A stretch of DNA of 64,000 bases from an archaeon (GTDB lineage: Archaea > Nanobdellota > Nanobdellia > Woesearchaeales > UBA9642), in NCBI GenBank assembly GCA_043806035.1, contig JAZDHK010000001.1, positions 1 to 64,000 of the forward strand. Reading direction: 5' to 3'. Positions 1-54,733 of the stretch are shown piece after piece; position 1 is the first letter of the stretch; each line of letters starts with the position of its first letter. The translations under genes were made by a program, and so were the position numbers. The notes beneath the pieces are model-generated. The model saw nothing but the letters and a program-made list of their open reading frames with translations, had not been told where the DNA came from and did no database searches.

Positions 1-210
1 CATGGCGTAGTCGTCATCGACGACCGACAACAAAAACTGAAAGTCTTTACCGCCGACGTGGATGCGACAAGCCCTCCGCAGAGGGCTTGACGAGGAAGGA
101 GGCGGAACGGGGTCATAGGGGGTCGCAACCCCCTATCTCACCAGTAATCCAAAAACTCTAAAATTTTCCTTCGGAACATTGCACTAAATTTTAGGTCTTC
201 CCGTTGGTCA

Positions 211-238
211 GACGAATATAACAGCGATTATGTGCAAT
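211..238 (+). repeat. dif-like recombination site 1 (GACGAATATAA-CAGCGA-TTATGTGCAAT)
   Basis: 11+6+11 layout with TAA/TTA flanking a 6-nt spacer, as in E. coli dif; one of 4 direct-orientation copies. Confidence 0.75.
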
Positions 239-258
239 TTTTGAGAACGCTTAATTTT

Positions 259-1191
259 TTATTGGGAGACTTTGCCATTCCAAGAAGTTGTACTCAATTC
301 TGGTTTTAGCACATCAATAATTTCATCAGGATTAATTTTATACATAACATAGCTCTCTGTATGTTTATCCCATGGAAAAGATGATTCTGTTCCATTAACT
401 GAAACATGAAGATGAGTTCCATTTCTAACTGAGTCCTGTAATTTCCCTGGCAATCTTGCAGCATGTTCAGTATAGTAAATCAAATCAATTTCTGGAATTT
501 GAATCTTAAATAAATGGAGATTTTTTCCTTCTTCAGTCAATGTTCTTCCACCAAAATGTCTTCCAACGGCAATTGCTACATCCTGATGAGATGAAACCGA
601 GACTAATGGAGACCAATAATTTTCGCCATGAAAATGTCTTTCAACAACTTCATCGAAATATACGGATAATAGATTGGCTTCAAAATTTTCTATTGTAGAT
701 GACATCTCTCCAGATTTTCTTAAAAAATCAGACTCAATTCCTTCATGTCTCATTTTTTCTGCTTCTTCATCACTTAAAACCATGCCTCTCCAAACAGTTT
801 TAGAGCCGAGATATTTTTTAAATGATTCTCTTGCTGCTAAATAATCACTTTGATCTTGAGATTTTAGAAAATCTACAAATTCAGGTAAATGAGTAACAAC
901 TCCTTGATCCAAATTTAGTTGTGCTAAGTGAGGATTTTGTTGAGCAAATATTCCATGGATGGTGGTCCTTTCAGGGCTATCACCCCTCGCACTAATCACT
1001 TTTGTCCAATTCGCATCTCCATAAGCTGAACCAGAATAACTAGAAATAACTGCTTCAATTATTTCATTTCTTTTATGATTCACCGAATTTTCTAATAAAC
1101 TCGTAAGATTACTTCTATCTCCAATAATTTCAACAGCTTCATCTCTACCACGATATACTCTAAGCTTACCTAAATAAGATGTATCTACCAT
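259..1191 (-). CDS. AT-rich cassette gene, putative R-S-E type ADP-ribosyltransferase-fold protein
   Basis: 310-aa ORF; motifs VWRGM, SPLVSVSS and late ESYV occur in ART-like order; function inferred. Confidence 0.45.
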   Translation of the reverse strand: MVDTSYLGKLRVYRGRDEAVEIIGDRSNLTSLLENSVNHKRNEIIEAVISSYSGSAYGDANWTKVISARGDSPERTTIHGIFAQQNPHLAQLNLDQGVVTHLPEFVDFLKSQDQSDYLAARESFKKYLGSKTVWRGMVLSDEEAEKMRHEGIESDFLRKSGEMSSTIENFEANLLSVYFDEVVERHFHGENYWSPLVSVSSHQDVAIAVGRHFGGRTLTEEGKNLHLFKIQIPEIDLIYYTEHAARLPGKLQDSVRNGTHLHVSVNGTESSFPWDKHTESYVMYKINPDEIIDVLKPELSTTSWNGKVSQ

Positions 1192-1465
1192 ATATCAAGA
1201 TATAAAGACTTAATTTATAAATTTTGTGTTTCGTAATCACTATTGAGTGACTAATGGCTTGAAACACTAGAATTCTGCAATTCTAGGGCGTGGTGCGACT
1301 TTCTGCTCAAAAAAGGATTGCACATGGTTTTCTGGATTTTTGGCGCAATGCTCGCTTCGAGGGTCGGGGATCCGATCATCGTTTTTTTCAACAGTTTGTA
1401 AGACGCTGCTTTATTTAAATGTTGTCCTACATTTTGATAATTGGTGCGCCGCTTTTTCAAGGGTT

Positions 1466-2587
1466 TTACTGATTGTTCCGTTTTTGTAGAAGTTCTCTCT
1501 TCTTGTTTCCAGAAACAAGCCCTGCGATTGTTCTTCGACGGAGTTGTTCTCTGAAGTTGTGTGAGTTGGCGTGTTTTGCATATGCCGACCATCCTTGCAG
1601 GGAGTTCAATACGTGGTCGGCGTCGACTAGGCAGTTCTCGTATCCTTCGAGTAGGTCTGTGAGTTTGTTCTGGATTTTGTAACTGTTTCTTTTTCTGGGA
1701 AGCTTGTGATGAGAGAATATTCGATATCCTAAGAAGGAGGTTCCTCGGTGCAGTGGTGTGATGCTGCATTTTGTAGGGTGCAGATCAAGCTTGATGCCCG
1801 TCAGGAATTGCCGTATCTTCGCTTCATATTCTTTTAGCGTGCGTTCTGATTGGTGCAGTATGACGAAATCATCGACGTAACGGATGTAATATTTAACCTT
1901 GAGGTCATGCTTGACGTATTGGTCGAGCTCGTTGAGGTAGATGTTGGCGAAGAATTGACTCGTCCAATTCCCAAGAGGCATACCTTTGCCAGTTTCTTTG
2001 CTTTCGTAATTGTCAAGTATCTTCTTGACGAGCCACAAGACATCATCGTCCTGGATGCGCCGTGCGATTATGCTCAATAGAACGTTGTGGTCGACTCTTT
2101 CGAAATAATGGCAGATGTCTGCTTTGAATACGTAGCCACGAATCACGTCGGTAGTTTGTCCGCTATCGGTTAAGAAGGTCATTGTTCTTTTACCATTCAG
2201 GGTCAGTTGTTTCTTGAATTGGTCGAACCGTAGTATAGCTGGTAGTGTTCCTTTGCCTTTTCTGCTAGCAAAACTATCCTAAATGAATCTTGGCTCGAAG
2301 ACGGGCTGAAGCACATTGATGAGAGCGTGGTGAATTACGCGGTCACGAAAATCGCTTACGCATATCGTTCTTGTTTTCGGGTCTCGCAGGATGAACGTCT
2401 TTAAGGGTCGTGGCCTGTATGTCTTATTCCTAAGTTCAAGACGAAGGTAAGCGAGTTCCATGACGTAACTTTTGGAGAATTCCTTAACTGAGGTCTTGTT
2501 GGCTTTGTGCAGTTGGGCTTTGAAATATGCTATGTTAAGGTTTTCCCATGAGCAAAGCTGCTCGTAGAGCCGTCGGTATGTCTTCAT
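1466..2587 (-). pseudogene. DGR reverse transcriptase interrupted by one in-frame TAG (2279-2281)
   Basis: MKTY start; PKTRTICVSDFRDRVIHHAL, FI*DSFASRKGKGT, KADICHYF, GMPLGNWTSQFFANIYL, YIRYVDDF; both track ORFs are in one frame. Confidence 0.9.
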
Positions 2588-2638
2588 GATCTTTCGGGAA
2601 TAACCTTGCTCATTCAGTATAATGTCCCTGCCCGTGGC

Positions 2639-2729
2639 CATTCCACGAGCACGCCTGTTGTTGTTGCATTTGTTGTTGGCATTGAGGTTGTTGTTGTAGT
2701 TGTTGTCGTTGCCAAGCCCGACCAAGCGG
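2639..2729 (-). repeat. DGR template repeat (TR)
   Basis: AAC-rich 91-nt copy of VR just upstream of the RT; 17 of 18 substitutions versus VR are at TR adenines. Confidence 0.95.
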
Positions 2730-2988
2730 CCGTTGTAGCCCAGTCACCGTCGAATGCTCACCATCACTTCAGGACGTTCCTTGCGTACTTGTTGTCGTGA
2801 TTGTATTTCATACCAATGCCCACAGACGACTCTATCGTCTAGTGTTGAGGTCTCTTGGCGTGATGACGGGGCGTGTGGTCTCACTCCCTTCGGCACAATA
2901 ACACGTGCCAAATGATGAAGGCAGGGACAACAAACCCGTATCCTTCCCGTTCATATATTTATCCAATTTTTAGATGCAGTGCCGAGAA

Positions 2989-5900
2989 TCAGGTTCTGTA
3001 GAATTCTCTGTACGTGTAGTTGTAGGGTGAATAGGAGAACTGGTATTCTCGGGAAAGGGTTATCTTGTCTTTTTCCTTGAACCTGTTCGCAATCACACCC
3101 TGGATGCTTCCTCTGTTGCTGTGGATGGTTGTTTGTACAGGTATGAGAACGTCGGAGCACTTCATCTTTTTAGCGATGACCTTAGCGGCCTGCACAATCT
3201 TATCAAATATTTGTTCTGGGCTAGTCTGGCTCAGGATACTCGATGCTGGCTGTACAGACAAGACTAAATGTTTCTTGCCTGCTTCGTCTATGAATCGCAG
3301 GATCGCTCCGCCGTGAGCGTTCTTGTCATCATCGAAAATCATGAGCTGCCAGAAATTCTTGTCATTCCACAACTGCTCATCAGGAGCAACGCACACACCC
3401 ATGTTATACATGGCAAGGCAGTGAGTCTTCTTTTTTGAGAGGAGCAGGTGGTATTTTTTACCTCCGCCGATTCTCGCTGATTTCTTGAATTCGTACTTGC
3501 TCATCTCTTCTTGCATCTTCGCATAGTTATCTCCATAAAGTTCTGCGAAAATTCTGGCAATCAGCCCTTTCTCTATCACGTTCGGCTTCATCCCTGACAG
3601 CCATGCGTTAATTTGTGCAACGTCCATGCCTCTGATTGCACGTGTGTTGTCGACGGCGAACCCATTCTGTACCAGAATTCTCAAGGCGATTTCATCCTTA
3701 CGTTCGTCAGGCTGAGGAGAAATCATCACGCCAAAAATCTGCTTCGCGAGTCCCTTGAAGTCGATCTTTTTCCTTCCTAGCGCAGTCATCTGCAAGTCAT
3801 AAAATCGTTCTGGCTTCTGTTTCAATGATTCCTGCAATATGCTAAAGACAAGATCATTTGCAACCCGATCGCCAATGAATTCCTTGTACTTCATGAGGGT
3901 CTGATGCTCAAGGCGGAATTCAGGCAAGCTCTCACCCTTATTCAAGCTATGTTGATAGACACCAAATATAAAGTATTGTCGCTGCTGCTTGAGCGAGTTC
4001 TTGATGAGGGCATCCATCATCTGGAAACCGAACGTTGCCACATCAAAGGCTTTTCGCTCCTTGATTTGCTGCGCAGCGTCGATGATGAGCTTCCACGCTT
4101 CCGAATCTACCTCTTGCTCCTTGTTCTTGAGCACAAAACTACCCCTACTCAGCTGAATGCTAATCGGTTTAGAGAGAGCGGCGGGAATGTCTGCTTGCCT
4201 ATCCTGGCGTTCAGACCAGGTGTGTTCATAGTTTTGCTTATCGACCGTCATGTCGTGGCACGCATAGACAAAGTACAAAACGGACATGAGCATCCTATCA
4301 TCATACCTCTTGCTCAGTGCTCCTTCATAGATGTCATTCTTCATCTGACGAACATCCTTAAAGAGAAGGAAGATACGCTCATCTCTTGTGTTGGCGTCGC
4401 TTGTTGTGTAGATTTCCTTGAACGCAGGATACAACGCCAATATGTAGGCGGGCGCATTCTCCAAGAAGACCTTGATAATCTCAGCATCCTTACTTATCGG
4501 CGAGGGGATGACTCTCTGGTCGAGCCCTGCGATCAGAATATCTTGTAAGATGGTGTTGGCTTTGGTCAGATACGTCTTGCTGATATGCTTGATGAGCTCC
4601 AGATCATTCTTACCTTGGATGCCCTGTTGGTCGTAGATTCTCTTTGTCGATTCGAGTATCTGGAACGTTGCTACCGTCTGCGACTTCGCAACAGGGATGA
4701 GAAAATCATCGAAAACAGACAAGCCAAACTGTATTATCAGTGAATTAAGTCTTTCGAGTGCGCTCATCGTCTGGTCTTCTGTCCCCTCGCAGCATTCGAT
4801 GAATTCAACAAACTTCTCTGCTATTTCATGAATCTGGTCAGGTTTTTCTATCAGATGTTTTAGTAATGGAATGCCTGAACTGAAGAGATGCTTGACACTT
4901 TCAGGAGAACTCTTCGAGAGCTTTTCAGATAATGCAATGCATATCTCGCAAATGAGCGACAGGTCTTCTTCCTTATTGATGAACCCGATAAGGGCAGCCA
5001 GACTGGCATAAAACAAGTGATGCGCCTTCGCAGGTAGCCTACGCTCTTTCTCCTCAAAAAACGCAACCAACCGCCCCACGTCGTGCATGATTCCAAGTTT
5101 CCGATAAATCACTAACCCTATATAAGGCACAAGCAAACCTTGATTTCCTGTGGAAAAAATTTTTTGCACCCCACGAGCGCGCCAGTCGTAGTCGCAATAG
5201 CTGTAGGCAATGAGGTAGTCGTTGTAGCGGTCGCCGCCAAGCCCGACCAAGCGGATCAATGCTTGTCCTACTCGCACGTTGCAATCTGACTTTTTTACTG
5301 TCCACGCACGTAAGTCTCGGTTAAGTTGTTTCTTCATGAAGTCAGCATATGCTTGTGCCTTGTTGCCAAGGATGCATTTGGCAACGTCCAGAACATCAGT
5401 TCTTTCGTTCTGGTCAGTCACTTTGATGATGCGACCAGTCTGCTTTGCCCTCGCGATGGCATTTCTTATCATTGATGTATTTGCATCAACCACCCACTTA
5501 TTTCCTGCGTCGTAGCCTTCCTTCGTCCTGAGCAACAAGATGTTCTCTATCGGGTCGTCATCGAACGCAACAAAATATTCCTTTCCATCAGTGAAATAGA
5601 TGGCAACAGTTCTTGTGTTGTAATAATAATCAAAGTCTCCCTTGCCCTTCATCATACGATAATTGACGGCTTCTCGTGCTGACTGCAAGACTCCGCCATT
5701 CTCGAACGTGAACTTGACGCAATCAGGCATAGCGATATTCTTGCTTGATATTTCCGTGTATTCCTCAACTGGAGGGTCACGCGTGGAGAAACCCTCACTA
5801 AGTGTAGTGTGAATATGTCGTAGCTGTTCTATGAAATCAGTCAACGCTTTCTCTTTCTGGTTAATCTCATGGATGTTTACGACGGTAAGCTCTTTTTTCA

Positions 5901-6144
5901 GCGCGTCCATGTCGTTCTGATTGTGTTTCTCGTAGAACGCCAGTAGATGTTTGTAGATATCCTCAAGTTCAGTAATCTTCAACAATGCGGCTTGATTGCC
6001 CTTGAAATCTTTAGCCAAATTCTCCAAATGACGAATAAGCTTATCGAGCTGTTTCAGCCGAGCATCATCATACCAGTGGATACCAATCTCCTCATCAAGC
6101 GGGAACACGTCCACCTTCTTGTCAAACCAGTCGAAAAGGCCCAT
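2989..6144 (-). CDS. DGR target protein (1051 aa) with internal variable region
   Basis: Uninterrupted ORF containing VR at about aa 297-326 (RLVGLGGDRYNDYLIAYSYCDYDWRARGV). Confidence 0.9.
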   Translation of the reverse strand: MGLFDWFDKKVDVFPLDEEIGIHWYDDARLKQLDKLIRHLENLAKDFKGNQAALLKITELEDIYKHLLAFYEKHNQNDMDALKKELTVVNIHEINQKEKALTDFIEQLRHIHTTLSEGFSTRDPPVEEYTEISSKNIAMPDCVKFTFENGGVLQSAREAVNYRMMKGKGDFDYYYNTRTVAIYFTDGKEYFVAFDDDPIENILLLRTKEGYDAGNKWVVDANTSMIRNAIARAKQTGRIIKVTDQNERTDVLDVAKCILGNKAQAYADFMKKQLNRDLRAWTVKKSDCNVRVGQALIRLVGLGGDRYNDYLIAYSYCDYDWRARGVQKIFSTGNQGLLVPYIGLVIYRKLGIMHDVGRLVAFFEEKERRLPAKAHHLFYASLAALIGFINKEEDLSLICEICIALSEKLSKSSPESVKHLFSSGIPLLKHLIEKPDQIHEIAEKFVEFIECCEGTEDQTMSALERLNSLIIQFGLSVFDDFLIPVAKSQTVATFQILESTKRIYDQQGIQGKNDLELIKHISKTYLTKANTILQDILIAGLDQRVIPSPISKDAEIIKVFLENAPAYILALYPAFKEIYTTSDANTRDERIFLLFKDVRQMKNDIYEGALSKRYDDRMLMSVLYFVYACHDMTVDKQNYEHTWSERQDRQADIPAALSKPISIQLSRGSFVLKNKEQEVDSEAWKLIIDAAQQIKERKAFDVATFGFQMMDALIKNSLKQQRQYFIFGVYQHSLNKGESLPEFRLEHQTLMKYKEFIGDRVANDLVFSILQESLKQKPERFYDLQMTALGRKKIDFKGLAKQIFGVMISPQPDERKDEIALRILVQNGFAVDNTRAIRGMDVAQINAWLSGMKPNVIEKGLIARIFAELYGDNYAKMQEEMSKYEFKKSARIGGGKKYHLLLSKKKTHCLAMYNMGVCVAPDEQLWNDKNFWQLMIFDDDKNAHGGAILRFIDEAGKKHLVLSVQPASSILSQTSPEQIFDKIVQAAKVIAKKMKCSDVLIPVQTTIHSNRGSIQGVIANRFKEKDKITLSREYQFSYSPYNYTYREFYRT
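5167..5254 (-). repeat. DGR variable repeat (VR)
   Basis: 88-nt match to TR with adenine-specific substitutions and a one-codon deletion. Confidence 0.95.
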
Positions 6145-6257
6145 CTATTGCTACCTCTACTCTGACCCGTCCTTTGGCTTGAGGATTTATAAAGAATTCG
6201 ACCTAGCGGGAGGAAAAAAGAGCGAGCTTTAAATATGGAAACGACTTGTGCGTGTAC

Positions 6258-7580
6258 ATGGACGCTGAGCAAGTGAAGATTCTGCTGAAGGAGCGAGAGA
6301 ATCTCACGCTCGAATTCAAGGAACGCTACACAGCGAAGATGGATGAAGATATCGTCGCATTCTCGAACACAAAAGGCGGCGTCATCATTCTTGGCGTCAA
6401 AGACAACGGAACAGTCGTCGGCGAACAGCTCACAAACGACATGAAAGCAAAAATAAACAGCCTGGCTAAGAATTGCGAGCCAAGTATTAGTGTGCAACTA
6501 TCCCAAGCAGCAAATGTAGTCATCATAGAAGTGAACGAAGGAATGCAAAGACCTTATCGCTGCGGTACGGGATACTTCCGAAGGCTCGACGGCAGTACCC
6601 AAAAGATGACCAATGAAGAGCTGCGTATCATGTTTGGCGAAAACGAACCCCTGTCTTTTGAGGAGAGAACAAGCAACTGCACTATCGACGACATTTCTGA
6701 TGACAAGGTGAAGAAATTTCTGCAAGAAGCAAAAGTAAGCATCACTGATCAGAGCACGGCGGACATCCTCACGAGCACCAACGTCCTCAAAAGTAGCAAG
6801 ATTAACAATGCAGGCATCCTGCTCTTCTCCAAAAACGTCAAGAAGTTCCTGCCGCAGGCCAAGATGACGCTGCTCTGGTTCAAAGGAACAACAAAAAGCA
6901 TCATCCTCGACAGGCAGGACGTAGAGGACGATTTGCTCACTCAATTCGAGCAAGCCATCTTCTTCATCAAGAAACACTTGAACGTCAAAAGTGTCATCGA
7001 AGGCACGGACAGGACGGAAATCTACGACATTCCTCAAGCGGTGTGGCGTGAGGCCACAGCCAACGCCATCATCCACCGAGACTACGCAAGGACAGGCACG
7101 AACATCTCTGTCGAAGTATACGATGACCGACTGCTAATATCCAGCCCTGGCGGACTGCCCAAAGGGCTGAGCAAGAAGGAATTCGGCAAGATTAGCATAA
7201 GGCGCAACGAGCTTATCGCAGATTTCTTCTATCGCATGGGCAAAGTCGAACGCGCAGGTACAGGCATCCAGCGCATGAAAGACAAGATGAAAGAAGCAGG
7301 ACTCCCAGAGCCATCCTTCGAGGTCGAGAACTTCTTCATCGTCACCATGCAACGCACACAAGAAGGCATCAAACCAAAAAGTGAGACGTTAACACCCAAG
7401 CAAGAGCAGATACTCGCACTGCTCAAAGAGAACCCATCACTCACACAAGCGAAACTCGCAGAAAAATTAGGCGATACGCAACGACATATTCAGCGCATCA
7501 TAGTCGAGCTAAAAAAGAGGGATTTTATTGAGCATACGGGTTCTAAGAAAGCAGGTCAGTGGGTAGTTAAAAAAAGTTAA
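6258..7580 (+). CDS. AlbA_2/Schlafen + HATPase_c_4 + HTH protein (RecG-like-C regulator family)
   Basis: ENLTLEFKE, IVAFSNTKGGVIILGVKD, REATANAIIHRDY, VERAGTGIQRM, C-terminal HTH. Confidence 0.88.
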   Translation: MDAEQVKILLKERENLTLEFKERYTAKMDEDIVAFSNTKGGVIILGVKDNGTVVGEQLTNDMKAKINSLAKNCEPSISVQLSQAANVVIIEVNEGMQRPYRCGTGYFRRLDGSTQKMTNEELRIMFGENEPLSFEERTSNCTIDDISDDKVKKFLQEAKVSITDQSTADILTSTNVLKSSKINNAGILLFSKNVKKFLPQAKMTLLWFKGTTKSIILDRQDVEDDLLTQFEQAIFFIKKHLNVKSVIEGTDRTEIYDIPQAVWREATANAIIHRDYARTGTNISVEVYDDRLLISSPGGLPKGLSKKEFGKISIRRNELIADFFYRMGKVERAGTGIQRMKDKMKEAGLPEPSFEVENFFIVTMQRTQEGIKPKSETLTPKQEQILALLKENPSLTQAKLAEKLGDTQRHIQRIIVELKKRDFIEHTGSKKAGQWVVKKS

Positions 7581-7686
7581 TAGGACATAAAAATGTCCTA
7601 TTAAATGTCCTATTAAATGTTGAGAAAAAGCCGTTCTGACGGCTTAAAACGCCATTATTCTTAGAGTTGTACCCAAAAATGGGTAC

Positions 7687-9325
7687 GAGGCTGTCCGACA
7701 ATCAACTTTTTTGTTGCATTGTCGGAGAGAAAAAGTCTTTCGTCTTTAAGCTGCTCTCCTTAGGCGGTTGTTGATGAGAACGATGTTGTGGGAGATGCAG
7801 GCAAGGGAGAATTCTGTGGCCACGTTCTTGTGGGTTCTGAGCAAAAAATGGGTGAACTGCCTGTTGTGTTTTATATCGCCAATGCTGCGCTCGACTGTTT
7901 GTTTTCGCAGATCATACACTGCCCGTCCTTGCGTGGTGCGCAGTTTTGTACGCATGCGATTGAAGAGCTTGTCATGTTCACCGACGCTGATTTTCTTGCG
8001 TCTTTGGTCTTTGCAGCATGCTGCAAAGTGCACGCAATGCTTGCAGTCACGAACACGAGAAATGTATGTGGTGCGATGCTGGTGTGATTGGCCGTCAAGA
8101 TACGTGCCACGATTTCGGAGCGGAATGTTCATCGGGCACACGTACACGTCCTGCTGCTCATCATAGGTAAAATCAGCACGACCAAAGTTCAAGTGATCAG
8201 TTTCCTTTTGATCAGAGCAGGTCACGGGAATGTACAAATCAAAGCCGTGCTGTTCGAGCGCCGCCATTTCTTCTCCGTTCTGGTAACCCTTATCTGCGCT
8301 GATTTTCGTCCCTGCGGGCAGTGCGCCGAATGTGTCTTCAACACAACGAATGTTGAATCGTAACTGTCCTCGGTCAACGCTTTTAGCAATTACCTCGCCT
8401 GAGATAATCATGCCTGTCTTGTCCGTGACGAGCTGGGCGTTGTAGCCCAGCTCAAATCGTCCTTTTTTGCTTATCATGAAGCGACTATCAGCGTCGGTGA
8501 AACTGAACTTGGTGAGCTGCTTGTCGTGCATGGATTGTTTGGCGTGTTCGAGTGCTGCTTTGATGGCTTGTGTTTTCTCTGGCTTGCCTTGCTGGATTGC
8601 AGTATTGATTTCTTTGACAATTTTTCTCACGATCGGTCTGCGCTTTTCTGAGTCGCTAAGGTCTTTGGGCATCTCGTGCAGTCCACGATTGCCTAACAGC
8701 GCGTCCTCTTCCTCATCCGTGCGTATGCCTTCTTCGATTACTTGGTCAATGTACTTTTGCAGTTTGTCAATTGTGGCCTTGTCAATAACTTTCTCGTCGT
8801 TGGCGCACGCCTTGATGACTGTCCCATCAATCATCAACTGGCTCAAGTCAACAAGACCGTGCTTGAGTGCAAACAAATTCAACTGCTTGAACACCTCCTT
8901 GACCAAGGAGGTGTTGTTCTTGCGAAAATCACTAATCGTGCGAAAGTCAGGACTGGTCTTCTCAGCCAGGTAAATGTACACGACGTTCTCGTGAGCGTTC
9001 TTGGCTATTCGTCGTGAGCTGCGCAGGCCATCAACATAGCCCATCAAGAGCAGCTTGAGCAAAATCCGAGGATGGTACGCAGGATGGCCTGCGCCCGCAA
9101 ACTGCTCATCAAATGACGAATAGTTAAGTTCGTCAGTTATTTGCTCAAGCAAATAACACACGTGATTCTGCGAGAACAGGTCGGTGATGTTGGGTGGAAG
9201 AAGGTAGTTTTGGTTGCGAAAACTCTGCACATACGCCATGAAAAGCACCTCATTTTGTCGTCGACAAAAACAGCTTTTCTCGAGGAGAACAACTATTAAA
9301 ACCTATCGAATTATCGGACAGCCTC
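7687..9325 (-). mobile_element. IS1182-family insertion sequence (1639 bp)
   Basis: Terminal inverted repeats GAGGCTGTCCGACAAT (7687-7702) and ATTATCGGACAGCCTC (9310-9325), 15/16 match, enclosing the transposase. Confidence 0.9.
7746..9239 (-). CDS. IS1182-family DDE transposase
   Basis: GHPAYHPRILLKLLL, SSRRIA, PDFRTISDFR, IDGTVIKA, GYNAQ, ADKGY, RKQTVERSIG. Confidence 0.93.
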   Translation of the reverse strand: MAYVQSFRNQNYLLPPNITDLFSQNHVCYLLEQITDELNYSSFDEQFAGAGHPAYHPRILLKLLLMGYVDGLRSSRRIAKNAHENVVYIYLAEKTSPDFRTISDFRKNNTSLVKEVFKQLNLFALKHGLVDLSQLMIDGTVIKACANDEKVIDKATIDKLQKYIDQVIEEGIRTDEEEDALLGNRGLHEMPKDLSDSEKRRPIVRKIVKEINTAIQQGKPEKTQAIKAALEHAKQSMHDKQLTKFSFTDADSRFMISKKGRFELGYNAQLVTDKTGMIISGEVIAKSVDRGQLRFNIRCVEDTFGALPAGTKISADKGYQNGEEMAALEQHGFDLYIPVTCSDQKETDHLNFGRADFTYDEQQDVYVCPMNIPLRNRGTYLDGQSHQHRTTYISRVRDCKHCVHFAACCKDQRRKKISVGEHDKLFNRMRTKLRTTQGRAVYDLRKQTVERSIGDIKHNRQFTHFLLRTHKNVATEFSLACISHNIVLINNRLRRAA

Positions 9326-9494
9326 GGACCCTTTTTTGTGTCCTGACTATTTAAATACTTGCACGAACATTATTGGGTATGAGACAACCCATATTCTTGT
9401 CAAGAATTTGTCAAGTCAACTCACTCGATATTTCAAAAGTGTATCACATAATCGGACATAATGTAATAAATCATGGAAACTATGAAGTTATGAG

Positions 9495-10058
9495 GTGAAA
9501 AGCATGGTCTGGACTTACAAACGCGAACCATTGGAAGACAACGAAGCCGACTTGCTCAGAAGAAACTGCAAAAGCTTTGAGGAAGAGCTCGTCATAAACG
9601 TGCTCCTTGATACAGGCATGCGCGTAAGCGAGCTCGCCCACCTCGAGGAACAGAACGTAGCCTGGCAACGCAGCTGCATCAACCTTACTGGTAAGGGAGG
9701 CAGGCGCAGGGTCATTCCTATGAGCGACCTCGTGCGCTTCTACCTTACGCATACGTTCAGCAAACAATCGAGGGTACCACTGGCTATGAGAACTATTGAG
9801 AAGTACGTCAAGGTCGTTGCTGAGCGTGCGCGGCTGAAAAAGAAGGTTAGCCCGCACATCTTACGACACACCTTCGCCGTCACATACCTGCACCGAGGAG
9901 GCAATCTTCGAGCGTTGCAGGCGATTCTGGGGCACAGCAGCATAACCACAACAGACATTTATCTGAACTATTCGGGCAAACGGGTGATTGAGGATTTTCA
10001 GAAAGTGTGGCAGCAAAAGGAGGTCGGCAACGCAAATCTCAAGCAGTTTTTCCCATGA
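9495..10058 (+). CDS. Tyrosine recombinase, catalytic domain only (187 aa)
   Basis: TGMRVSEL, GKGGRRR, HILRHTFA, LGHSSITTTDIY: full R-K-H-R-H-Y set; no N-terminal core-binding domain. Confidence 0.92.
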   Translation: MKSMVWTYKREPLEDNEADLLRRNCKSFEEELVINVLLDTGMRVSELAHLEEQNVAWQRSCINLTGKGGRRRVIPMSDLVRFYLTHTFSKQSRVPLAMRTIEKYVKVVAERARLKKKVSPHILRHTFAVTYLHRGGNLRALQAILGHSSITTTDIYLNYSGKRVIEDFQKVWQQKEVGNANLKQFFP

Positions 10059-10330
10059 GCGATTCCCTCAATAATGATGCGTTTTTCTGGACACTAATAC
10101 TGGTGGGACTAGGCATCGTGATAAAGAAATGGTACGATAGCTTGGATGTGCAACAAATCCTGCACACTGCGCTCCTGCTGGTGTACGGGCTTGCGATATT
10201 GTCGGTATTCCTTCTTGTTCTGTACTTGGCGCTCAGATACGGTCAGAGGAATAAGGAGCACATCAATGATTTCAAAAGCCACATAGCCAGCTATGAGCGA
10301 GAATATAAATATTTCTATTTTAACTACTGA
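10055..10330 (+). CDS. Small membrane protein translationally coupled to the recombinase
   Basis: ATGA overlap with recombinase stop; two hydrophobic segments. Confidence 0.6.
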   Translation: MSDSLNNDAFFWTLILVGLGIVIKKWYDSLDVQQILHTALLLVYGLAILSVFLLVLYLALRYGQRNKEHINDFKSHIASYEREYKYFYFNY

Positions 10331-10433
10331 CAGATGACTAAATGACAAAGTTTCCCTTAATGTAATAGTATAATAGACTTCGTCTTGTAACGCGTTCTCA
10401 AAAACTGTCCCTTCGGTCGGTCGACTTGCAGTC

Positions 10434-10461
10434 TCCCCACATAACAGCGATTAAATACAAT
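10434..10461 (+). repeat. dif-like recombination site 2 (TCCCCACATAA-CAGCGA-TTAAATACAAT)
   Basis: Same layout and spacer as site 1. Confidence 0.75.
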
Positions 10462-10515
10462 TGAAAAAGTGCGCCTATAGAATATTTTATATATGTACCA
10501 ACATCTTAAGAAAAT

Positions 10516-11079
10516 ATGGACTTAGGAAAAACACTTTATGTGATTAATAGAAAACAATGGCGTTCATGGCTCGCTAAAAACCACAATAAAGAAAAAGAAA
10601 TCTGGCTCATTTATTATAGAAAATCATCTGGCAAAAAAAGAATTCCATACAATGATGCAGTTGAAGAGGCTCTCTGTTATGGTTGGATAGATAGTGTTAT
10701 GAAGAGAGTAGATGAAGAAAGGTTTGCTCAGAGATTTACTCCAAGAAGACCGGGCAGTATACTCTCAGAAATGAATAAAGAGCGTATTCGCTTACTTGTA
10801 AAACAAAAAAAGATGAAATCTGTTGGTCTCACTGCAATACAACACGTTTCTTTTAATCCTACAAAGAATACAAAACTAAAAATCCCATCTGATATTCTCA
10901 AATCCTTGAAGAAAGACGAAAAAACGTGGGGATACTTTCAGAAATTTTCAGAATCATACAAACGTATTCGGATTGAGTGGATAGAAGGAGCCAGAACTCG
11001 CCCCGAACTTTTTAAAAAGAGACTAAGATATTTTCTTAAGATGACTGCAAAAAATAAAAAATATGGGATGATACAATGA
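10516..11079 (+). CDS. YdeI/OmpD-associated (bacteriocin-protection) family protein, cassette gene
   Basis: WRSWLAKNH, YNDAVEEALCYGWIDS, QRFTPRR, WIEGART; AT-rich. Confidence 0.9.
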   Translation: MDLGKTLYVINRKQWRSWLAKNHNKEKEIWLIYYRKSSGKKRIPYNDAVEEALCYGWIDSVMKRVDEERFAQRFTPRRPGSILSEMNKERIRLLVKQKKMKSVGLTAIQHVSFNPTKNTKLKIPSDILKSLKKDEKTWGYFQKFSESYKRIRIEWIEGARTRPELFKKRLRYFLKMTAKNKKYGMIQ

Positions 11080-11159
11080 TATAGCATTACGGCGCACTTT
11101 TTCAACTTCTTCGCTTCACTTCGTTACGCTCGACCACGTTGCACTCTCGCCTTCGGCTC

Positions 11160-11187
11160 GGGGTATTTAACAGGAATTAGATTCAAT
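11160..11187 (+). repeat. dif-like recombination site 3 (GGGGTATTTAA-CAGGAA-TTAGATTCAAT)
   Basis: Same layout; sits between two AT-rich genes. Confidence 0.72.
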
Positions 11188-11348
11188 AATTTTTAGTGGC
11201 TACGAACGACTGAAGGGGGACATTTCTAATACGACGAAACGAATTAGGGGGAGTTCAGACAATAAAAACATTAATAAACTTCAAGTTCAATAGAAGTTAT
11301 AAGTGGATATTTATATATGATTCCAATTCCATAAAGAGGTATATAACA

Positions 11349-13892
11349 ATGTTCAACAAAAAAATTTTATTAGGACTATTATTGGTTTCGATAATTATTC
11401 TTTCAGGTTGTGCAAATGAGAAAATATCTAAATATACTTCTGGAAAAATAGAGGAACCACAATTAAGTTATAATCCTCCAACATATTCTTTTAGTGCAAA
11501 GCAATATAATAATCCTGAATATAATTTGCCATTAACAGAATTGCCAGAAAATTATCAAAGAGATTTAGTAGATAAATTCAAAAAAGAACTAACTCAAGAG
11601 CAAATTAATACTCTATTAGTCAATGGAGTTGTAATTATACCTGGGGAGAATGATAGATTTGAGAGGGCATATCAGGAGCTTACTATGACAAAATATCAAA
11701 GTAAAGATAGAGAGGGAGTTCCCATTTTTATAACCACCGATTCTATTATGCACTTGTTTCATATAGAATTCAACGAGTTATTAAAAAACATAGAAATTAA
11801 CAAGTTAACACCTATGTTAAATGAATTTTTGGATAAAACTATTGAAGAGACAATAGCACAGTATAATGGTCTTGAAGATAAAGAATTAAAAGAACTCTCA
11901 AGAAGAAACGTGGCTTATTTAGCAGTTGCTAAGAAATTGTTAGACCCCGACTATAATGTTCCCGGATTTGTAGAAAATGAGGTTAAAGAGGAAATTGCAA
12001 GAATAGAAGACCATAAAGGTTTTTACAAAAATCCTCTTTTTAGTGAAAGTTGCCCTGAGGTTTGTGAACAAAGATTATACCCTTATAATTATAACCAGGG
12101 AGAAGGAGATAAGTGCAGTCAAGAAGTGAAAGGAAAAGTAATGTATGAGAGCAAAGAGTGGGAATTTCAAGACCTTTATATCCAAGTATGTTCAAAAAGA
12201 TGTTATTGTGAAGATTATTCCCAATATGTGCCAAGGGGACATTATACATCAAGTGAAGAACTAAAGAGATATTTTAAATCAATGATGTGGCTTGGAAGAA
12301 TGACATTCAAAGCTAATGGAGAAGAATGGACAAAACAGGCTGTTTTATTAACGGATTCTGTTAAATCTGCAAACACCATCGAATTATGGAATAAAATTTA
12401 CACTGTAACTGGATTCTTTGCAGGGGCTTCTGATGATTTGACATTTTATGAATATGATACTGTGGTTTTTAATCTGTTCAATTATGACTTTGATGAAAGC
12501 AAAGAGCTAAAACAACAAATAACAGAAAAAATGCAAGCAGAAATAAGGCAGATGAGGGGTCCAAAAATTCTTGGAGGATTTGAGTTTGATGTTGCTGGCA
12601 ATCTGAAAGACACTACTCAAGGACTGAGATTAATCGGACAAAGGTATGCTATTGATTCCCATATTTTGTCAGATATGGTTTACAACAATGTTGGAGTAAA
12701 TCCAGAATCAGAAAATTACGAAAGAGTCATCCAATGTAAACAGACTACCCAACAATTAAGTAAACCCGAAGAATTTTATTCTTCTTGTAGCAATATGAAT
12801 GAAGATAAAGTTAAGTATTGGAATGAAGTATGTTCCAAAGCAATGGAGATGTATTATTATAAAATGTGCGGGGGTCTAGATGAAGAACAGCTTTATTCAG
12901 TATGTAGATACATGCCAACAGGATTAGATGTAATGTCTGCTCTAGGTTCAAAAAGAGCAGATGAAATATTATCTGAGAAAAAAGTATCTACCTTCTGTAA
13001 TTATGATGAAAAAAATGAAGAAATGAAAGACTTAGTTCAAAGTTATGACCAAAATAAATGGAATGAAAACCTTTATAATACTTGGTTATGGATGATACAA
13101 CCAGTTTTGAAAGAAAAACCACAGGGTTACCCAAATTGGATGAAATCTGCAGTTTGGAGAAATAAAGAACTAGTTACAGCTCTGTCTTCATGGGCTCAGT
13201 TGAGGCATGATACGATACTGTATGTGAAACAAAGCTATACCCGAGCAACCATGATGATGAAAGCAACATCTGTAGGACCAATGTCTTCTAGATATTATGG
13301 TTATGTTGAGCCAAACCCAGAATTGTTTGCAAGAGCGAAGTTTATCTCTAAATTTTTGATTAAGGGATTGGAAGACCAGGGCGTAATGACTGAAGATGTT
13401 AAAAAATCATTAGAGCAAAGCAGGGATATGATGGATAGGCTCAAAGATATTTCTGAAAAAGAGCTACAGGGAATTCCACTTAGCGAAGAAGATTATAGTT
13501 ATATTGAGTCTATTGATGCAACATTTAATAGAATTATAGAAGACTTAGCTTCGGCATTAACTATCGAAACAAATAAAAAACCAATTGGCCCAGGAGTAGA
13601 AACTCATACAAATTTAGAGGGAAAGGATGATGCATTTAAGACAACAATAATAGCAGATGTTCACACCGAGACAAACACAAAAAAAGCATTGGAAGTTGGA
13701 ACTGGAAAAATTGATTGGATTATCGTCGCCCATGCATCAAAGGATGGAAGAATTGGTTTAGCAGTTGGACCTATGTTTAGTTATTATGAGTTCCCATGGC
13801 CAATGGAAGACAGATTGACGGATGAAAAATGGAGAACTGAAGTAATAAATAACGCAGAAAGACCAGATTGGATCACTTCTTTTATCTCTTAA
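11349..13892 (+). CDS. DUF3160-family lipoprotein, cassette gene
   Basis: Lipobox LSGC; PIFITTDS, EDYSQYVPRGHYT, YFKSMMWLGR, SWAQLRHDTILYVKQSY, RLTDEKW. Confidence 0.88.
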   Translation: MFNKKILLGLLLVSIIILSGCANEKISKYTSGKIEEPQLSYNPPTYSFSAKQYNNPEYNLPLTELPENYQRDLVDKFKKELTQEQINTLLVNGVVIIPGENDRFERAYQELTMTKYQSKDREGVPIFITTDSIMHLFHIEFNELLKNIEINKLTPMLNEFLDKTIEETIAQYNGLEDKELKELSRRNVAYLAVAKKLLDPDYNVPGFVENEVKEEIARIEDHKGFYKNPLFSESCPEVCEQRLYPYNYNQGEGDKCSQEVKGKVMYESKEWEFQDLYIQVCSKRCYCEDYSQYVPRGHYTSSEELKRYFKSMMWLGRMTFKANGEEWTKQAVLLTDSVKSANTIELWNKIYTVTGFFAGASDDLTFYEYDTVVFNLFNYDFDESKELKQQITEKMQAEIRQMRGPKILGGFEFDVAGNLKDTTQGLRLIGQRYAIDSHILSDMVYNNVGVNPESENYERVIQCKQTTQQLSKPEEFYSSCSNMNEDKVKYWNEVCSKAMEMYYYKMCGGLDEEQLYSVCRYMPTGLDVMSALGSKRADEILSEKKVSTFCNYDEKNEEMKDLVQSYDQNKWNENLYNTWLWMIQPVLKEKPQGYPNWMKSAVWRNKELVTALSSWAQLRHDTILYVKQSYTRATMMMKATSVGPMSSRYYGYVEPNPELFARAKFISKFLIKGLEDQGVMTEDVKKSLEQSRDMMDRLKDISEKELQGIPLSEEDYSYIESIDATFNRIIEDLASALTIETNKKPIGPGVETHTNLEGKDDAFKTTIIADVHTETNTKKALEVGTGKIDWIIVAHASKDGRIGLAVGPMFSYYEFPWPMEDRLTDEKWRTEVINNAERPDWITSFIS

Positions 13893-14064
13893 TTTTTTTT
13901 ACTTCTTGTTTATATTATGATTAATAAATGATGGAACTCCCCCAGACTACTATGAAATGTCCCCCTTGATGTTTGTTCTTGATGTTTCGCTTCGCTTATT
14001 TGATTGAACACGAGCCACTAAAAATTACTCTGCGGACGCAGGTTTCCCACACTTGCGTATGGGA

Positions 14065-14092
14065 AACGAACTTAACAGGCATTATGTCTAAT
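14065..14092 (+). repeat. dif-like recombination site 4 (AACGAACTTAA-CAGGCA-TTATGTCTAAT)
   Basis: Same layout; follows the DUF3160 cassette. Confidence 0.75.
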
Positions 14093-14127
14093 TCATAATT
14101 CGGGCTAAAAGATAGAAACCGAAAGAT

Positions 14128-14566
14128 TTAGGCTCTAGAAAATTTGTATGTGTTGTCTCGTAATTGCCCTGAAAGTACTTCAAGTTCCCAATCAACTGCA
14201 ATGCCTTCTTCCCATCTTTCATACTTCTTAGAATATTTTGCATCAACTCCAATTAAAGTTGATTGATAAGGAATTACTTCAAAATCATTCTTTGTTTCAA
14301 TAGGAAGATCAACAGTATGTTTAGCTCCACTTGATTCAATTATTAATCAAATCAGGTAGAGCTTTAATTATATTTTCATATACTATACTTGCCCAAAAAT
14401 TTGCGACAAGTCCGAACATTATACCTATGATAATACCTTGATTAAATCTTGTTCTTTCCTCGACATATTTTTCAGAAGAGTATAGGTTAGCTAGGTGAGA
14501 ATTCAGTTCTTCATCTGTCCATTTTCTCTTTTTCATATCTTGATTCTCCACGTATTTGCTTGTCAT
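14128..14566 (-). pseudogene. Disrupted AT-rich cassette gene
   Basis: 76-aa ORF (14336-14566, one TM segment) followed out of frame by a start-less open stretch 14128-14346 (ESSGAKHTVDLP...KFSRA*). Confidence 0.5.
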
Positions 14567-14650
14567 ACATTCCTTCTTTAATGTTGTTCAAGTGTATGGC
14601 TATCTTTCGCTTCAGTTCGTTCTGTTCCCGACGCAATTTTTTTATCCTGC

Positions 14651-14761
14651 TCATTTGAGTTCCTTTAGTCGTCCTGCTTTGATATCTTCAAGACTGGCTA
14701 AAAAATCCTTAAGAAACTCATTCTGTTCACGTAGTTTTTTCTCTAATCTATTCACACTCAT
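14651..14761 (-). CDS. Putative small antitoxin (36 aa)
   Basis: MSVNRLEKKLREQNEFLKDFLASLEDIKAGRLKELK; ATGA overlap with toxin stop; not in ORF track. Confidence 0.6.
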   Translation of the reverse strand: MSVNRLEKKLREQNEFLKDFLASLEDIKAGRLKELK

Positions 14762-15081
14762 ATGCAATCACTCTCCTTTAAATTTTTTACGCATTTTTCA
14801 TACTGCGCTCTTTGTCCTTTAATGAAATCTATGATTTCCTGCTGGTTTTTCTTGTCACCTATATCAGTAAGCAGTACAATTACCTCCGCGTCAAATATGA
14901 GAAAATATATTCTGAATTTTCCCACTTTTAGTTCTCTTATGTGCCTATCTCCAAGAGGTTTGCCAACAAACGGATTTCTGGAAAGTTTTCGGATTCTGGA
15001 CAAAGTCTGTTCGTGCAATGCTCGAGGGATGATTTTTCTGAATTTTTTCTCAAAGACCGTCGTCATTTTTACCGCATACAT
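14758..15081 (-). CDS. RelE/ParE-family toxin
   Basis: FEKKFRK, NPFVGKPLG, RELKVGKFRIYF. Confidence 0.85.
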   Translation of the reverse strand: MYAVKMTTVFEKKFRKIIPRALHEQTLSRIRKLSRNPFVGKPLGDRHIRELKVGKFRIYFLIFDAEVIVLLTDIGDKKNQQEIIDFIKGQRAQYEKCVKNLKESDCI

Positions 15082-47205: not shown

Positions 47206-47309
47206 GGGCAAGTAGCTCAACTCGGTAGAGTGCCCCGTTGGCTCACGCGAAATGAACATGTTCGTGTCCAGAGTCGGGGAGGCTGCGGGTTCAAATCCCG
47301 CCTTGTCCA
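47206..47309 (+). tRNA. tRNA-Ala(GGC) with 30-nt intron (47244-47273)
   Basis: Acceptor GGGCAAG/CTTGTCC with G3:U70; T arm GCGGG-TTCAAAT-CCCGC; bulge-helix-bulge at 37/38. Confidence 0.9.
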
Positions 47310-54627: not shown

Positions 54628-54733
54628 GCGGGTGTAGCTTAACCTGGTTATAGCGCCAGACTCATAGCAGCACTGCGACAACGCATGATGTCGTGAGATC
54701 TGGAGGTCGCGAGTTCAAATCTCGCCACCCGCA
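54628..54733 (+). tRNA. tRNA(CAT), probably elongator Met, with 31-nt intron (54667-54697)
   Basis: Acceptor GCGGGTG/CACCCGC, anticodon stem CCAGA/TCTGG, T arm GCGAG-TTCAAAT-CTCGC; Ile2 not excluded. Confidence 0.88.

Follow-up and report, generated by a model that had tools for sequence, protein, structure and literature searches.

Four copies of a short dif-like site lie near one end of the window (the whole 64-kb stretch of DNA analysed here), which raises the question of whether the genes between them are mobile cassettes and, if so, which recombinase would move them. Integrons are the textbook gene-capture system, and their origin from Xer-like recombinases is an open question. DPANN archaea have small genomes and are believed to rely on exchanging genes. 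A natural integron layout with Xer/dif-type parts would make the Xer-to-integron transition testable with real sequences, and such an array would give DPANN archaea a defined route for acquiring single genes. We regard a cassette array on a Xer-family recombinase platform with dif-like sites as the best explanation of this locus and think that it is probably correct; on that view, the window covers the distal stretch of a chromosomal array of gene cassettes in a Woesearchaeota (DPANN) archaeon.

Core sites and cassettes in the window

The core TAACAGNNATTA occurs four times in the 64-kb window, always on the + strand, against a shuffle expectation of 0.06, and at least four copies were reached in 0 of 100 shuffles. 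An earlier, sequence-only reading of this DNA had reported the same four sites, and their positions, letters, single orientation and dif-like 11-6-11 layout all hold. When a weight matrix (trained on 25 sites from five genomes) was run over the whole 1.5-Mb genome, five matches scored at least 24 bits, these being the four window sites and one on contig C20, and the next best match scored 16.6 bits. In the host, then, the sites do not occur by chance and are restricted to a single locus.

The consensus core spans 28 bp: the left 11-bp arm has TAA at its end, a 6-bp spacer follows that is for the most part CA..A, and the right 11-bp arm has the form TTA....CAAT. This inverted-arm layout is common to 80 sites in 25 arrays or loci, and relatives carry same-strand arrays of the same site type. 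The strict pattern is present in 5 of 41 related genomes, while a reversed-pattern control is present in 0 of 41. Neighbouring sites do not have identical spacers, and the 80-site comparison showed no clear tie between spacer letters and either arm.

Table 1. Array features in the window, in order of position (E values are from Pfam; site A is the core site on contig C20)
Feature	Positions	Strand	Details
Multi-copy repeat, 3' end	1-143		Insertion within left structure of site 1; array interrupted and assembly broken here
Outer left arm, cassette ending at site 1	143-155	+	13-nt exact reverse complement of the C20 stretch after the mini-cassette behind site A
Left module of site 1, conserved module family	156-210	+	Near-identical module precedes a site in G039:C3 (L019)
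Site 1	211-238	+	11-nt left arm, 6-nt spacer CAGCGA, 11-nt right arm; 35.6 bits (weight matrix)
Outer right arm, site 1-2 cassette	238-250	+	13-nt exact reverse complement of 10392-10404
AT-rich cassette gene, 310 aa, function not assigned	259-1191	-	Sub-threshold DUF7587 match only (Pfam)
Inserted island, host-like GC	1213-10306		Both ends homologous to contig C34; outside the cassette system proper
Outer left arm, site 1-2 cassette	10392-10404	+	Pairs with 238-250
Site 2	10434-10461	+	Spacer CAGCGA; contigs from other metagenomes diverge at 10446-10454
Outer right arm, YdeI cassette	10461-10475	+	15-nt exact reverse complement of 11091-11105
YdeI/OmdA-family cassette gene, 187 aa	10516-11079	+	PF13376, E 3.2e-12
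Outer left arm, YdeI cassette	11091-11105	+	Followed by left module 11106-11159
Site 3	11160-11187	+	Spacer CAGGAA; contig breakpoints at 11174-11182
Outer right arms, DUF3160 cassette, two blocks	11187-11226	+	11187-11201 pairs with 14013-14027; 11213-11226 pairs with 13954-13967
DUF3160 cassette gene, 847 aa	11349-13892	+	PF11369, E 1.7e-179
Outer left arms, DUF3160 cassette	13954-14027	+	Followed by left module 14028-14064 with conserved hairpin
Site 4	14065-14092	+	Spacer CAGGCA; contig breakpoints at 14078-14082
Last, decayed cassette	14093-14690		76-aa ORF at 14336-14566 (-); remnant left module at about 14606-14690
ParE/RelE-type toxin and overlapping ORF, distal array end	14651-15081	-	Toxin 14758-15081, ParE_toxin E 7.2e-6; 38-aa ORF 14651-14767

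The AT-rich stretches noticed earlier are real, with a GC content of 31-36% at 1-1500 and 10500-15000 versus 44-53% elsewhere in the window, and the genes of the window array do point in mixed directions, as had been stated (Table 1). Pfam confirms the proposed YdeI and DUF3160 assignments and gives the supposed RelE toxin-antitoxin pair a ParE/RelE-type toxin, for which the overlapping 38-aa ORF may encode the antitoxin. An ART-like label for the 310-aa gene finds no support, since there is only the sub-threshold match and a search of the PDB with the product returned nothing. The array had also been taken to start at position 141, but the sequence up to 143 is the end of a repeat, and the array probably continues on C20. 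A 141-mer of this repeat begins contigs C1, C34, C42 and C19, its opposite end begins contigs C20 and C13, and Rfam found no group II intron in it.

One gene per interval, as first described, fails between sites 1 and 2, which lie 10.2 kb apart (211 to 10434) around an island of about 9 kb. Pfam and Rfam identify in this island a retroelement (RT plus RT-16 RNA), a 1051-aa ORF, a Schlafen/AlbA_2 ATPase, an IS and a 187-aa recombinase. The YdeI cassette has a second complementary block, 10502-10517 pairing with 11028-11043, and the module family at the end of the DUF3160 cassette also occurs at loci L016, L020 and L138, where by eye both sides of the stem change together. The last cassette has no core site after its remnant left module, its right flank has no partner anywhere in the genome, and only 14073-14130 is common to a cassette of locus L055.

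Cassette behaviour across genomes

Sequence homology with other genomes and with contigs from metagenomes begins and ends at the 6-bp spacers, which supports treating each interval as a cassette. For example, a NUDIX cassette occurs in two different genomes with 90.8% identity over 674 nt, running from core to core between unrelated flanks. Likewise, contigs from runs of four studies have the YdeI or DUF3160 cassette in common with the window and diverge at sites 2, 3 and 4 (Table 1). No circle or deletion junction was found among the assembled contigs examined.

The two ends of a cassette also match each other. Among consecutive site pairs from 15 arrays, the right flank of site n matches the reverse complement of the left flank of site n+1 exactly over 10 nt or more in 28 of 45, versus 63 of 3,495 other pairs, these being counts on sites from related genomes that are not independent of one another. 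At the variable arm positions, consecutive pairs match at 3.8 of 5 and other pairs at 2.16 of 5. Circle junctions joined in silico fold much more stably than their shuffles (z -3.9, -2.6 and -4.4), whereas linear junctions (z -1.9, +1.5, +2.6 and -0.3) and non-cognate joins (z +1.5 to -2.3) fold no better.

Cassettes mostly hold one AT-rich gene each, are about 0.5-3 kb long and can take either orientation (of the 46 that contain an ORF of 60 aa or longer, 28 are sense and 18 antisense). In a set of 51 the median length was 679 bp and the mean GC content 34%, whatever the GC of the host; their content is diverse, and a recombinase domain was absent from all cassette proteins scanned. By eye, TATA-like AT-rich stretches precede at least two cassette genes.

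The proposed recombinase platform on contig C20

Contig C20 carries the fifth core site and a 268-aa Xer-family tyrosine recombinase beside the array's primary site. It probably adjoins the left end of the window, a placement which rests on the 13-nt complementarity (Table 1) and matching repeat ends, not on a spanning contig. About 160-190 bp separate the recombinase gene from the primary site, which is upstream and points away from the gene. The same arrangement, a divergent recombinase gene about 160-300 bp from a conserved primary site, recurs in many Woesearchaeota/Nanoarchaeota genomes, and the left arm of the primary site is conserved across loci. The closest relatives of the recombinase are Woesearchaeota/Nanoarchaeota records, in keeping with the DPANN host first proposed. 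The array contig carries host genes.

Arrays and this recombinase go together in other genomes. Upstream sites on the opposite strand occur at 14 of 37 DPANN loci with the recombinase, and at a 15th (GW2011_AR15) across the record origin. In 20 of these 37 loci no more than 1.3 kb of contig remains upstream of the recombinase gene, and an array there would explain such frequent assembly breaks. Where at least 1.5 kb of upstream sequence is present, 11 of 15 loci have such sites and four (L047, L056, L059 and L066) have no upstream array; at L066 and L069 sites lie downstream of the recombinase on the same strand. Sites are lacking at 41 of 43 bacterial-type loci; matches of at least 19 bits number three, one each in three Pseudomonas loci (including L101), and two other rows are without coordinates. 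In G006 (83% complete) sites are present and the array-type recombinase was not found. The host genome (G000) has five sites, the complete GW2011_AR15 genome has six, and arrays reach eight sites or more.

The array recombinases form a separate monophyletic clade (SH-aLRT 99) in a quick tree that included no XerA of other archaeal phyla and had its root on a long branch. The C20 enzyme scores 187.8 bits against the XerA equivalog NF040815, below the cut-off of 220; array-type orthologues score 182-208 bits, and another clade in the same order scores 246-269 bits. Against the integron integrase model TIGR02249 it scores 181.7 bits (cut-off 265), its orthologues 186-198 bits and bacterial IntI controls 400-401 bits. 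It aligns end to end with Pyrococcus XerA, and the catalytic R-K-H-R-H-Y positions are invariant in three aligned clade members. The IntI-specific insert around patch III is absent, with residues 163-191 opposite IntI4 170-247 and about 50 residues missing, and the protein is shorter than the bacterial IntI proteins tested (298-314 aa). Its best PDB match is the Vibrio integron integrase 2a3v (E 3.1e-33), and its nearest relatives outside DPANN are bacterial integron integrases. This enzyme is the likely catalyst of the array.

The earlier reading had put forward, as one candidate, the 187-aa recombinase encoded at 9495-10058, which lies 380 bp before site 2 and whose catalytic domain matches Phage_integrase (E 1.8e-28). 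However, it consists of the catalytic domain only, belongs to the inserted island with host-like GC, has an 87% identical paralogue on C34 with no sites nearby, and is absent from arrays in other genomes. It is therefore very hard to credit as the driver of the array.

Mechanism, alternatives and known systems

The earlier proposal of cassettes handled by a Xer-type recombinase is supported, with flank covariation and spacer breakpoints as the support for cassette behaviour, and we regard the system as an integron analogue on Xer/dif-type parts, with the C20-type enzyme as presumed catalyst. The recombinase and primary site would form the platform, behind which cassettes would queue. Each cassette starts with a right arm and outer right arm; at its end come the outer left arm, a module of 35-60 nt that contains small hairpins, and the left arm. 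Because arms and outer arms are matched between the two ends, an excised circle would hold one complete, largely palindromic core site. The recombinase would bind the two arms and exchange strands at or in the spacer, as Xer does at dif, so that recombination between a cassette's two flanking direct sites would excise it, and the circle could insert at the primary site or another site. The differing spacers of neighbouring sites count against this mechanism, as classical two-strand exchange tolerates such differences poorly. Since the cassette-specific outer arms can act only by base pairing, they suggest a folded single-strand or cruciform stage, which might, speculatively, join the two cassette ends.

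In an alternative scheme the enzyme would be the chromosome-dimer resolvase (a single Xer in the style of XerS or XerH, encoded beside its dif), the primary site would be dif, and the cassettes would be independent small integrative elements piling up there with no dedicated capture platform. Such an IMEX-like scheme overlaps our preferred one in mechanism and differs in the purpose of the enzyme. It fits the dif layout of the core and the cassettes' lack of a recombinase of their own. It also fits the host genome, where all five tyrosine recombinases tested fall short of the XerA cut-off, the array enzyme scoring highest, and GW2011_AR15, whose sole full XerA-like gene encodes the array enzyme (the other match has 62 bits and two stops). 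Further, G002, G003, G009 and G014 have a single match, and G000 and G025 have no other full-length one. However, the array type coexists in G007, G011 and G038 with a canonical XerA that passes the NCBIfam cut-off (269 and 246 bits) where the array type does not (182-208 bits), and in G038 a stop codon interrupts the array-type gene but not XerA. The array clade has a patchy distribution, being present in 10 of 41 relatives, the site pattern is at background level only in five genomes without the array-type recombinase, and a second array (in G039, with no adjacent recombinase) and a solitary site sit away from the recombinase. We consider this scheme unlikely, though worth keeping in view.

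An ordinary integron (IntI plus attC), as in archaeal MAGs, would account for the divergent recombinase, primary site and array, for the 2a3v match and TIGR02249 score, and for the bacterial integron integrases as next relatives. It is largely refuted, and we give it hardly any credence, as the score is below cut-off, the IntI insert is missing, exchange falls at the centre of the palindrome rather than its base, and gene orientation is mixed. Nor are the sites self-contained hairpins, to judge from linear-junction folding, and a crude scan of our own (not IntegronFinder) gave 0 R''/R' candidates in 16 kb, so the early verdict that they are not attC stands. It is very improbable that the units are MITE-like transposons, or their cores regulatory or terminator elements. 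Every unit does have 12-16-nt terminal inverted repeats, and there are tandem empty units of about 100 nt, but each cassette has its own repeats, leaving no common end that a transposase could recognise. Moreover, the conserved part is a 28-bp junction with tyrosine-recombinase geometry, units always abut in one orientation beside a recombinase gene, and the genome has no further copies outside the array.

The cassette array on a Xer-type platform might, tentatively and on balance with some doubt, be an independent or ancestral form of integron. It would be a capture platform without the IntI insert, whose dif-like core forms the tip of a long palindrome specific to each cassette and whose primary site may double as the chromosome dif. 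A shared AT-rich gene pool would move between Woesearchaeota of very different GC, and the outer arms would point to a folded single-strand intermediate, the step thought to lead from Xer to integron recombination. The short core and the recombinase clade would offer a handle for harvesting this mobile archaeal gene pool from metagenomes. No description of such a system was found in the literature searched; PMC4792948 argues for a smooth transition from Xer-like recombinases to integrons.

Integrons are reported in archaeal MAGs (PMC9668308). The array resembles integrons in that its recombinase gene and primary site are divergent and lead into cassettes that are compositionally foreign, mostly hold a single gene and each bring a structured recombination site of variable sequence. 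It also has site clusters without an adjacent recombinase (like CALINs), a toxin-antitoxin pair (the antitoxin being putative) and cassettes common to different genomes. It differs in its recombinase, which has no IntI-specific insert and fails the TIGR02249 cut-off, and in cassette genes that point both ways, whereas integron cassettes are mostly co-oriented. An attC site is a self-contained imperfect hairpin with R''/R' core sites that recombines at its stem base, whereas here exchange would be at the palindrome's centre, so the palindrome is split between the cassette's two ends.

A dif site, as defined in PMC8371274, is 28 bp long with two 11-bp inverted arms and a 6-bp spacer. In the Xer/dif system a chromosome has a single such site, located where replication terminates. 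The array sites share these arms, this spacer and the TAA/TTA beside it, but there are many per chromosome rather than one, and their recombinase forms a separate clade under the XerA equivalog cut-off. Its gene adjoins a site, unlike the Thermococcales arrangement, where PMC2958812 places dif away from xerA. That paper also mentions XerS. The XerS/difSL and XerH/difH modules are similar in having a single Xer-type recombinase encoded immediately beside the site, but are not known to carry cassette arrays.

IMEX that integrate at dif include CTX, TLC and the gonococcal island. Like the cassettes, they have no recombinase of their own and sit in tandem between directly repeated dif-like sites, each bringing one. 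The cassettes differ in being archaeal, in being single genes of about 0.5-3 kb rather than phages or islands, and in their long arrays with extended cassette-specific palindromes. Acinetobacter pdif modules are likewise single genes bounded by Xer-type sites in varied contexts. They lie on plasmids between inverted sites, whereas the array sites are direct, chromosomal and tied to one recombinase gene.

Core sites and extent of the array

The sequence-only reading had described four 28-nt dif-like sites, each with an 11-nt arm, a 6-nt spacer and a second 11-nt arm, and their positions (211, 10434, 11160 and 14065) and letters are as it gave them. The window contains four copies of the core TAACAGNNATTA, all on the plus strand; shuffles predict 0.06, and none of 100 shuffles reached four. 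Across the whole genome (1.5 Mb, 42 contigs), the strict core occurs seven times. The same reading had suggested a profile scan, which was run as a weight matrix trained on 25 sites; five sites stood apart from the background at 24-36 bits, with all other matches at or below 16.6 bits. Four of them are those of the window, and the fifth lies on contig C20, minus strand. A site-like match on contig C34 at 18838 was rejected as a chance match within a conserved non-coding stretch, the window copy of which (1213-1450) lacks it. We also rejected the possibility that the repeated site is a tRNA or another RNA gene: ARAGORN gave no hits, and Rfam gave only two distant tRNAs and an RT-16 RNA. A terminal site 3' of the fourth site was looked for and is absent, leaving only a remnant module there.

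As judged from its sequence, the site has the geometry of a Xer-type core, in which cleavage occurs at the spacer ends according to PMC8371274. Spacer letters, compared in order to place the exchange point, are not clearly coupled to either arm: mean spacer identity is 4.08 for sites with the same left arm, 3.75 for those with the same right arm and 3.86 in the background, and position 5 alone shows a lean, towards the left arm. The analysis confirmed the AT-rich stretches noted earlier as well as the genes for YdeI, DUF3160 and a ParE-type toxin; the label "ART-like" for another gene was not confirmed.

The window opens, at bases 1-143, with one end of a repeat; three further contigs begin with this same end, and C20 and C13 begin with the other. 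On C20, the sequence that follows a scar is exactly complementary to window 143-155. Given this complement and the two ends of one repeat, C20 and the window are probably a single array; the gap between them is spanned by no contig. The multi-copy repeat (window 1-143 and the starts of C34, C42, C19, C20 and C13) has at least four right ends and two left ends, as well as subterminal hairpins; TTTATC precedes both left ends, and the interior is not assembled. Its first and last letters had raised the suspicion of a group II intron, which was dropped: Rfam gave nothing at either end, and RF00029 gave nothing genome-wide.

Features of the window and of contig C20, the latter in order as read on the C20 minus strand
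Feature	Coordinates	Remarks
Paired outer arms	238-250 with 10392-10404	Reverse complement
Paired outer arms	10461-10475 with 11091-11105	Reverse complement
Paired outer arms	11187-11201 with 14013-14027	Reverse complement
RVT_1 fragment	1466-2182	Within island
RT-16 RNA	2730-2919	Rfam
Schlafen AlbA_2 + RecG-C-like ATPase domain + winged helix protein	6246-7580	Within island
Insertion sequence	7671-9341	DDE transposase (7746-9248, minus strand) flanked by inverted repeats of 32 nt, 88% complementary
Tyrosine recombinase gene	C20 4040-4846	Pointing away from array
Primary site	C20	About 160-190 bp from recombinase gene
145-aa ORF	C20	After primary site; its arms and outer arms pair with the next site (site A)
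Empty mini-cassette	C20	After site A
Scar	C20	After mini-cassette; without spacer and right arm
UvrA-like and PadR genes	C20	AT-rich; after scar, followed by repeat

Palindromes divided between neighbouring sites

Immediately to the right of a site lies a stretch whose reverse complement is found 35-60 nt to the left of the next site. Additional inner blocks of the window's cassettes pair in addition to these cassette-specific outer arms, and the variable letters of the cores agree between the right arm of each site and the left arm of the following one. In 15 arrays drawn from this genome and others, 28 of 45 consecutive site pairs share an exactly complementary stretch of 10 nt or more, versus 63 of 3495 non-consecutive pairs. 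In the same arrays, 3.8 of five variable arm positions match in consecutive pairs versus 2.16 of five; p-values for both comparisons are overstated because the rows come from related genomes, but the effect is large nonetheless.

DNA folding agrees with this pattern. When each cassette is closed into a circle in silico, the resulting junctions fold strongly (z -3.9, -2.6 and -4.4), whereas linear junctions fold no better than shuffles (z -1.9, +1.5, +2.6 and -0.3) and non-cognate joins produce no strong fold (z +1.5 to -2.3). The exchange point therefore divides the palindrome, the reverse of the situation in an integron attC, which lies whole at the cassette end. A crude scan found no attC-type R''/R' hairpins in 16 kb.

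In the best-supported reading, a cassette would be cut out when the direct sites on either side of it recombine, and the excised circle would enter the primary site or another site. The outer arms vary from cassette to cassette and are therefore not protein-recognition sequences, so they could act only by pairing, which would indicate a single-stranded or cruciform stage. The left modules (35-60 nt with small hairpins, preceding a site) are of few families, common to several genomes, and by eye both sides of their stems change together; they may be binding places for accessory factors.

Mobility, relatives and comparison with known systems

Sequence comparison indicates that cassettes move between genomes. 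A NUDIX cassette (165 aa) is 90.8% identical over 674 nt between relative G039 and another MAG, with homology running from one core to the next and unrelated arms, modules and genes on either side. Contigs assembled from four sequencing runs, belonging to four studies, were also aligned to the window, which shares its YdeI cassette with two of them (X2 and X3) and its DUF3160 cassette with a third (X4). The match limits (10446-10454, 11174-11182 and 14078-14082) coincide with the spacers (10445-10450, 11171-11176 and 14076-14081) or fall no more than 6 nt away. The unrelated contexts of the NUDIX cassette and the contigs that diverge at or near spacers support cassette behaviour. Assembled contigs, which cannot show circles, otherwise contained one unrelated 115-nt skip and no back-joining.

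The 15 arrays hold 51 cassettes of 104-10217 bp (median 679 bp), and their GC averages 34% regardless of host GC. Of these cassettes, 46 contain an ORF of 60 aa or more, which runs in the array direction in 28 and against it in 18; there are also empty units of about 100 nt, at times in tandem. Pfam families include NUDIX, HD/DUF4202, hydrolases, symporter, serpin, NucS-like nuclease, YdeI and DUF3160; about half of the cassettes scanned have no Pfam family.

A strict 20-nt pattern occurs in five of 41 related genomes (reversed control: 0 of 41), and AT-rich parts of G006, G025, G038 and G039 contain arrays in which 3-8 sites share one strand. Using the recombinase as a query, with one genome per species, gave 80 loci. 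The 37 closest (43-58% identity) carry the titles Woesearchaeota, Nanoarchaeota or Pacearchaeota, or titles suggestive of binning errors. Sites are upstream on the opposite strand at 14, downstream on the same strand at two and absent from 21; at 20 of these 37 loci the contig ends no more than 1.3 kb upstream of the recombinase gene. The complete GW2011_AR15 sequence carries five sites separated from the nearby recombinase gene by the record origin. By eye, the site nearest the recombinase has its own conserved left arm in eight of the 17 loci listed and in the window's genome. Bacterial loci are without such sites, bar one look-alike each in three Pseudomonas records.

Some relatives carry unusual arrangements. 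In GW2011_AR15, the last array site, at 5375 (+), has a right flank exactly complementary over 13 nt to the left flank of a solitary site on the other strand, 690 kb away at 695081 (-); a large inversion between two sites would be expected to leave such a pairing. Locus L021 (G025, contig C5; 400-620, minus strand) has three sites 100 nt apart with two near-identical empty cassettes in tandem between them, adjoining a recombinase operon that includes a 337-aa ORF upstream of the recombinase. Locus L019 (G039, contig C3; 7500-10500) is that genome's second array, beside uvrC and without an adjacent recombinase, and its cassettes 1 and 2 are identical duplicates. The Pseudomonas look-alikes (L101 9724, L109 3124 and L111 6594) are TAA-6-TTA sequences about 280 bp upstream of integron integrase genes, score 19-25 bits with the archaeal matrix and have one arm conserved across all three; they may be the attI of those integrons.

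The arrays work like an integron, yet they lack three of the five defining features tested. Their putative catalyst, the 268-aa C20 recombinase, has as its best PDB matches a Vibrio integron integrase (in two pieces) and Pyrococcus XerA (in one piece), and it is without the IntI insert of about 50 residues. It falls below the cut-offs for both integron integrases (181.7 vs 265 bits) and XerA (187.8 vs 220 bits), while a second clade from the same order exceeds the latter (246 and 269 bits). In a quick tree of 66 rows, with eight rows containing stop codons excluded, the array clade (34 rows, SH-aLRT 99) and bacterial IntI (14 rows, SH-aLRT 96) each occupy one side of a branch, and the grouping of the array clade with XerA-type rows has weak support (82). 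Xer/dif matches in geometry, but the sites here are not single-copy and the enzyme is not a XerA equivalog. The array-type recombinase is present in 10 of 41 relatives, with the XerA type as well in G007, G011 and G038; neither the window's genome nor complete GW2011_AR15 shows another full XerA-like gene, and the array enzyme may also act in chromosome-dimer resolution. Five genomes lacking the array recombinase were searched for a canonical dif of the same type, and the pattern was no more frequent there than background. IMEX arrays are similar, but the units here are single genes and a recombinase gene is linked. Such arrays appear undescribed in the open literature, including the accessible parts of PMC9668308, PMC8371274, PMC2958812, PMC8138268 and bioRxiv 10.64898/2026.05.13.725050; the genome lists of PMC9668308 might include some of the MAGs studied here.

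Other features of the window

The island, an insert of host-like GC at 1213-10306, includes a probable diversity-generating retroelement (1466-6144, minus strand). Its 85-nt repeat pair (~2640-2725 and ~5170-5255) differs mostly where the first copy has A, and the second copy is inside a 1051-aa ORF (2989-6144), but not C-terminal. The Schlafen-domain protein may be a defence-type gene. Tyrosine recombinases of 187 aa, with the catalytic domain only, are encoded at 9495-10058 and in locus L002 (13073-13636); their DNA is ~87% identical, and the ORF that follows is shortened in the window copy. Two tRNA genes of 104-106 nt (47206-47309 and 54628-54733) were both found by Rfam and neither by ARAGORN; both probably contain introns, which are common in archaeal tRNAs.
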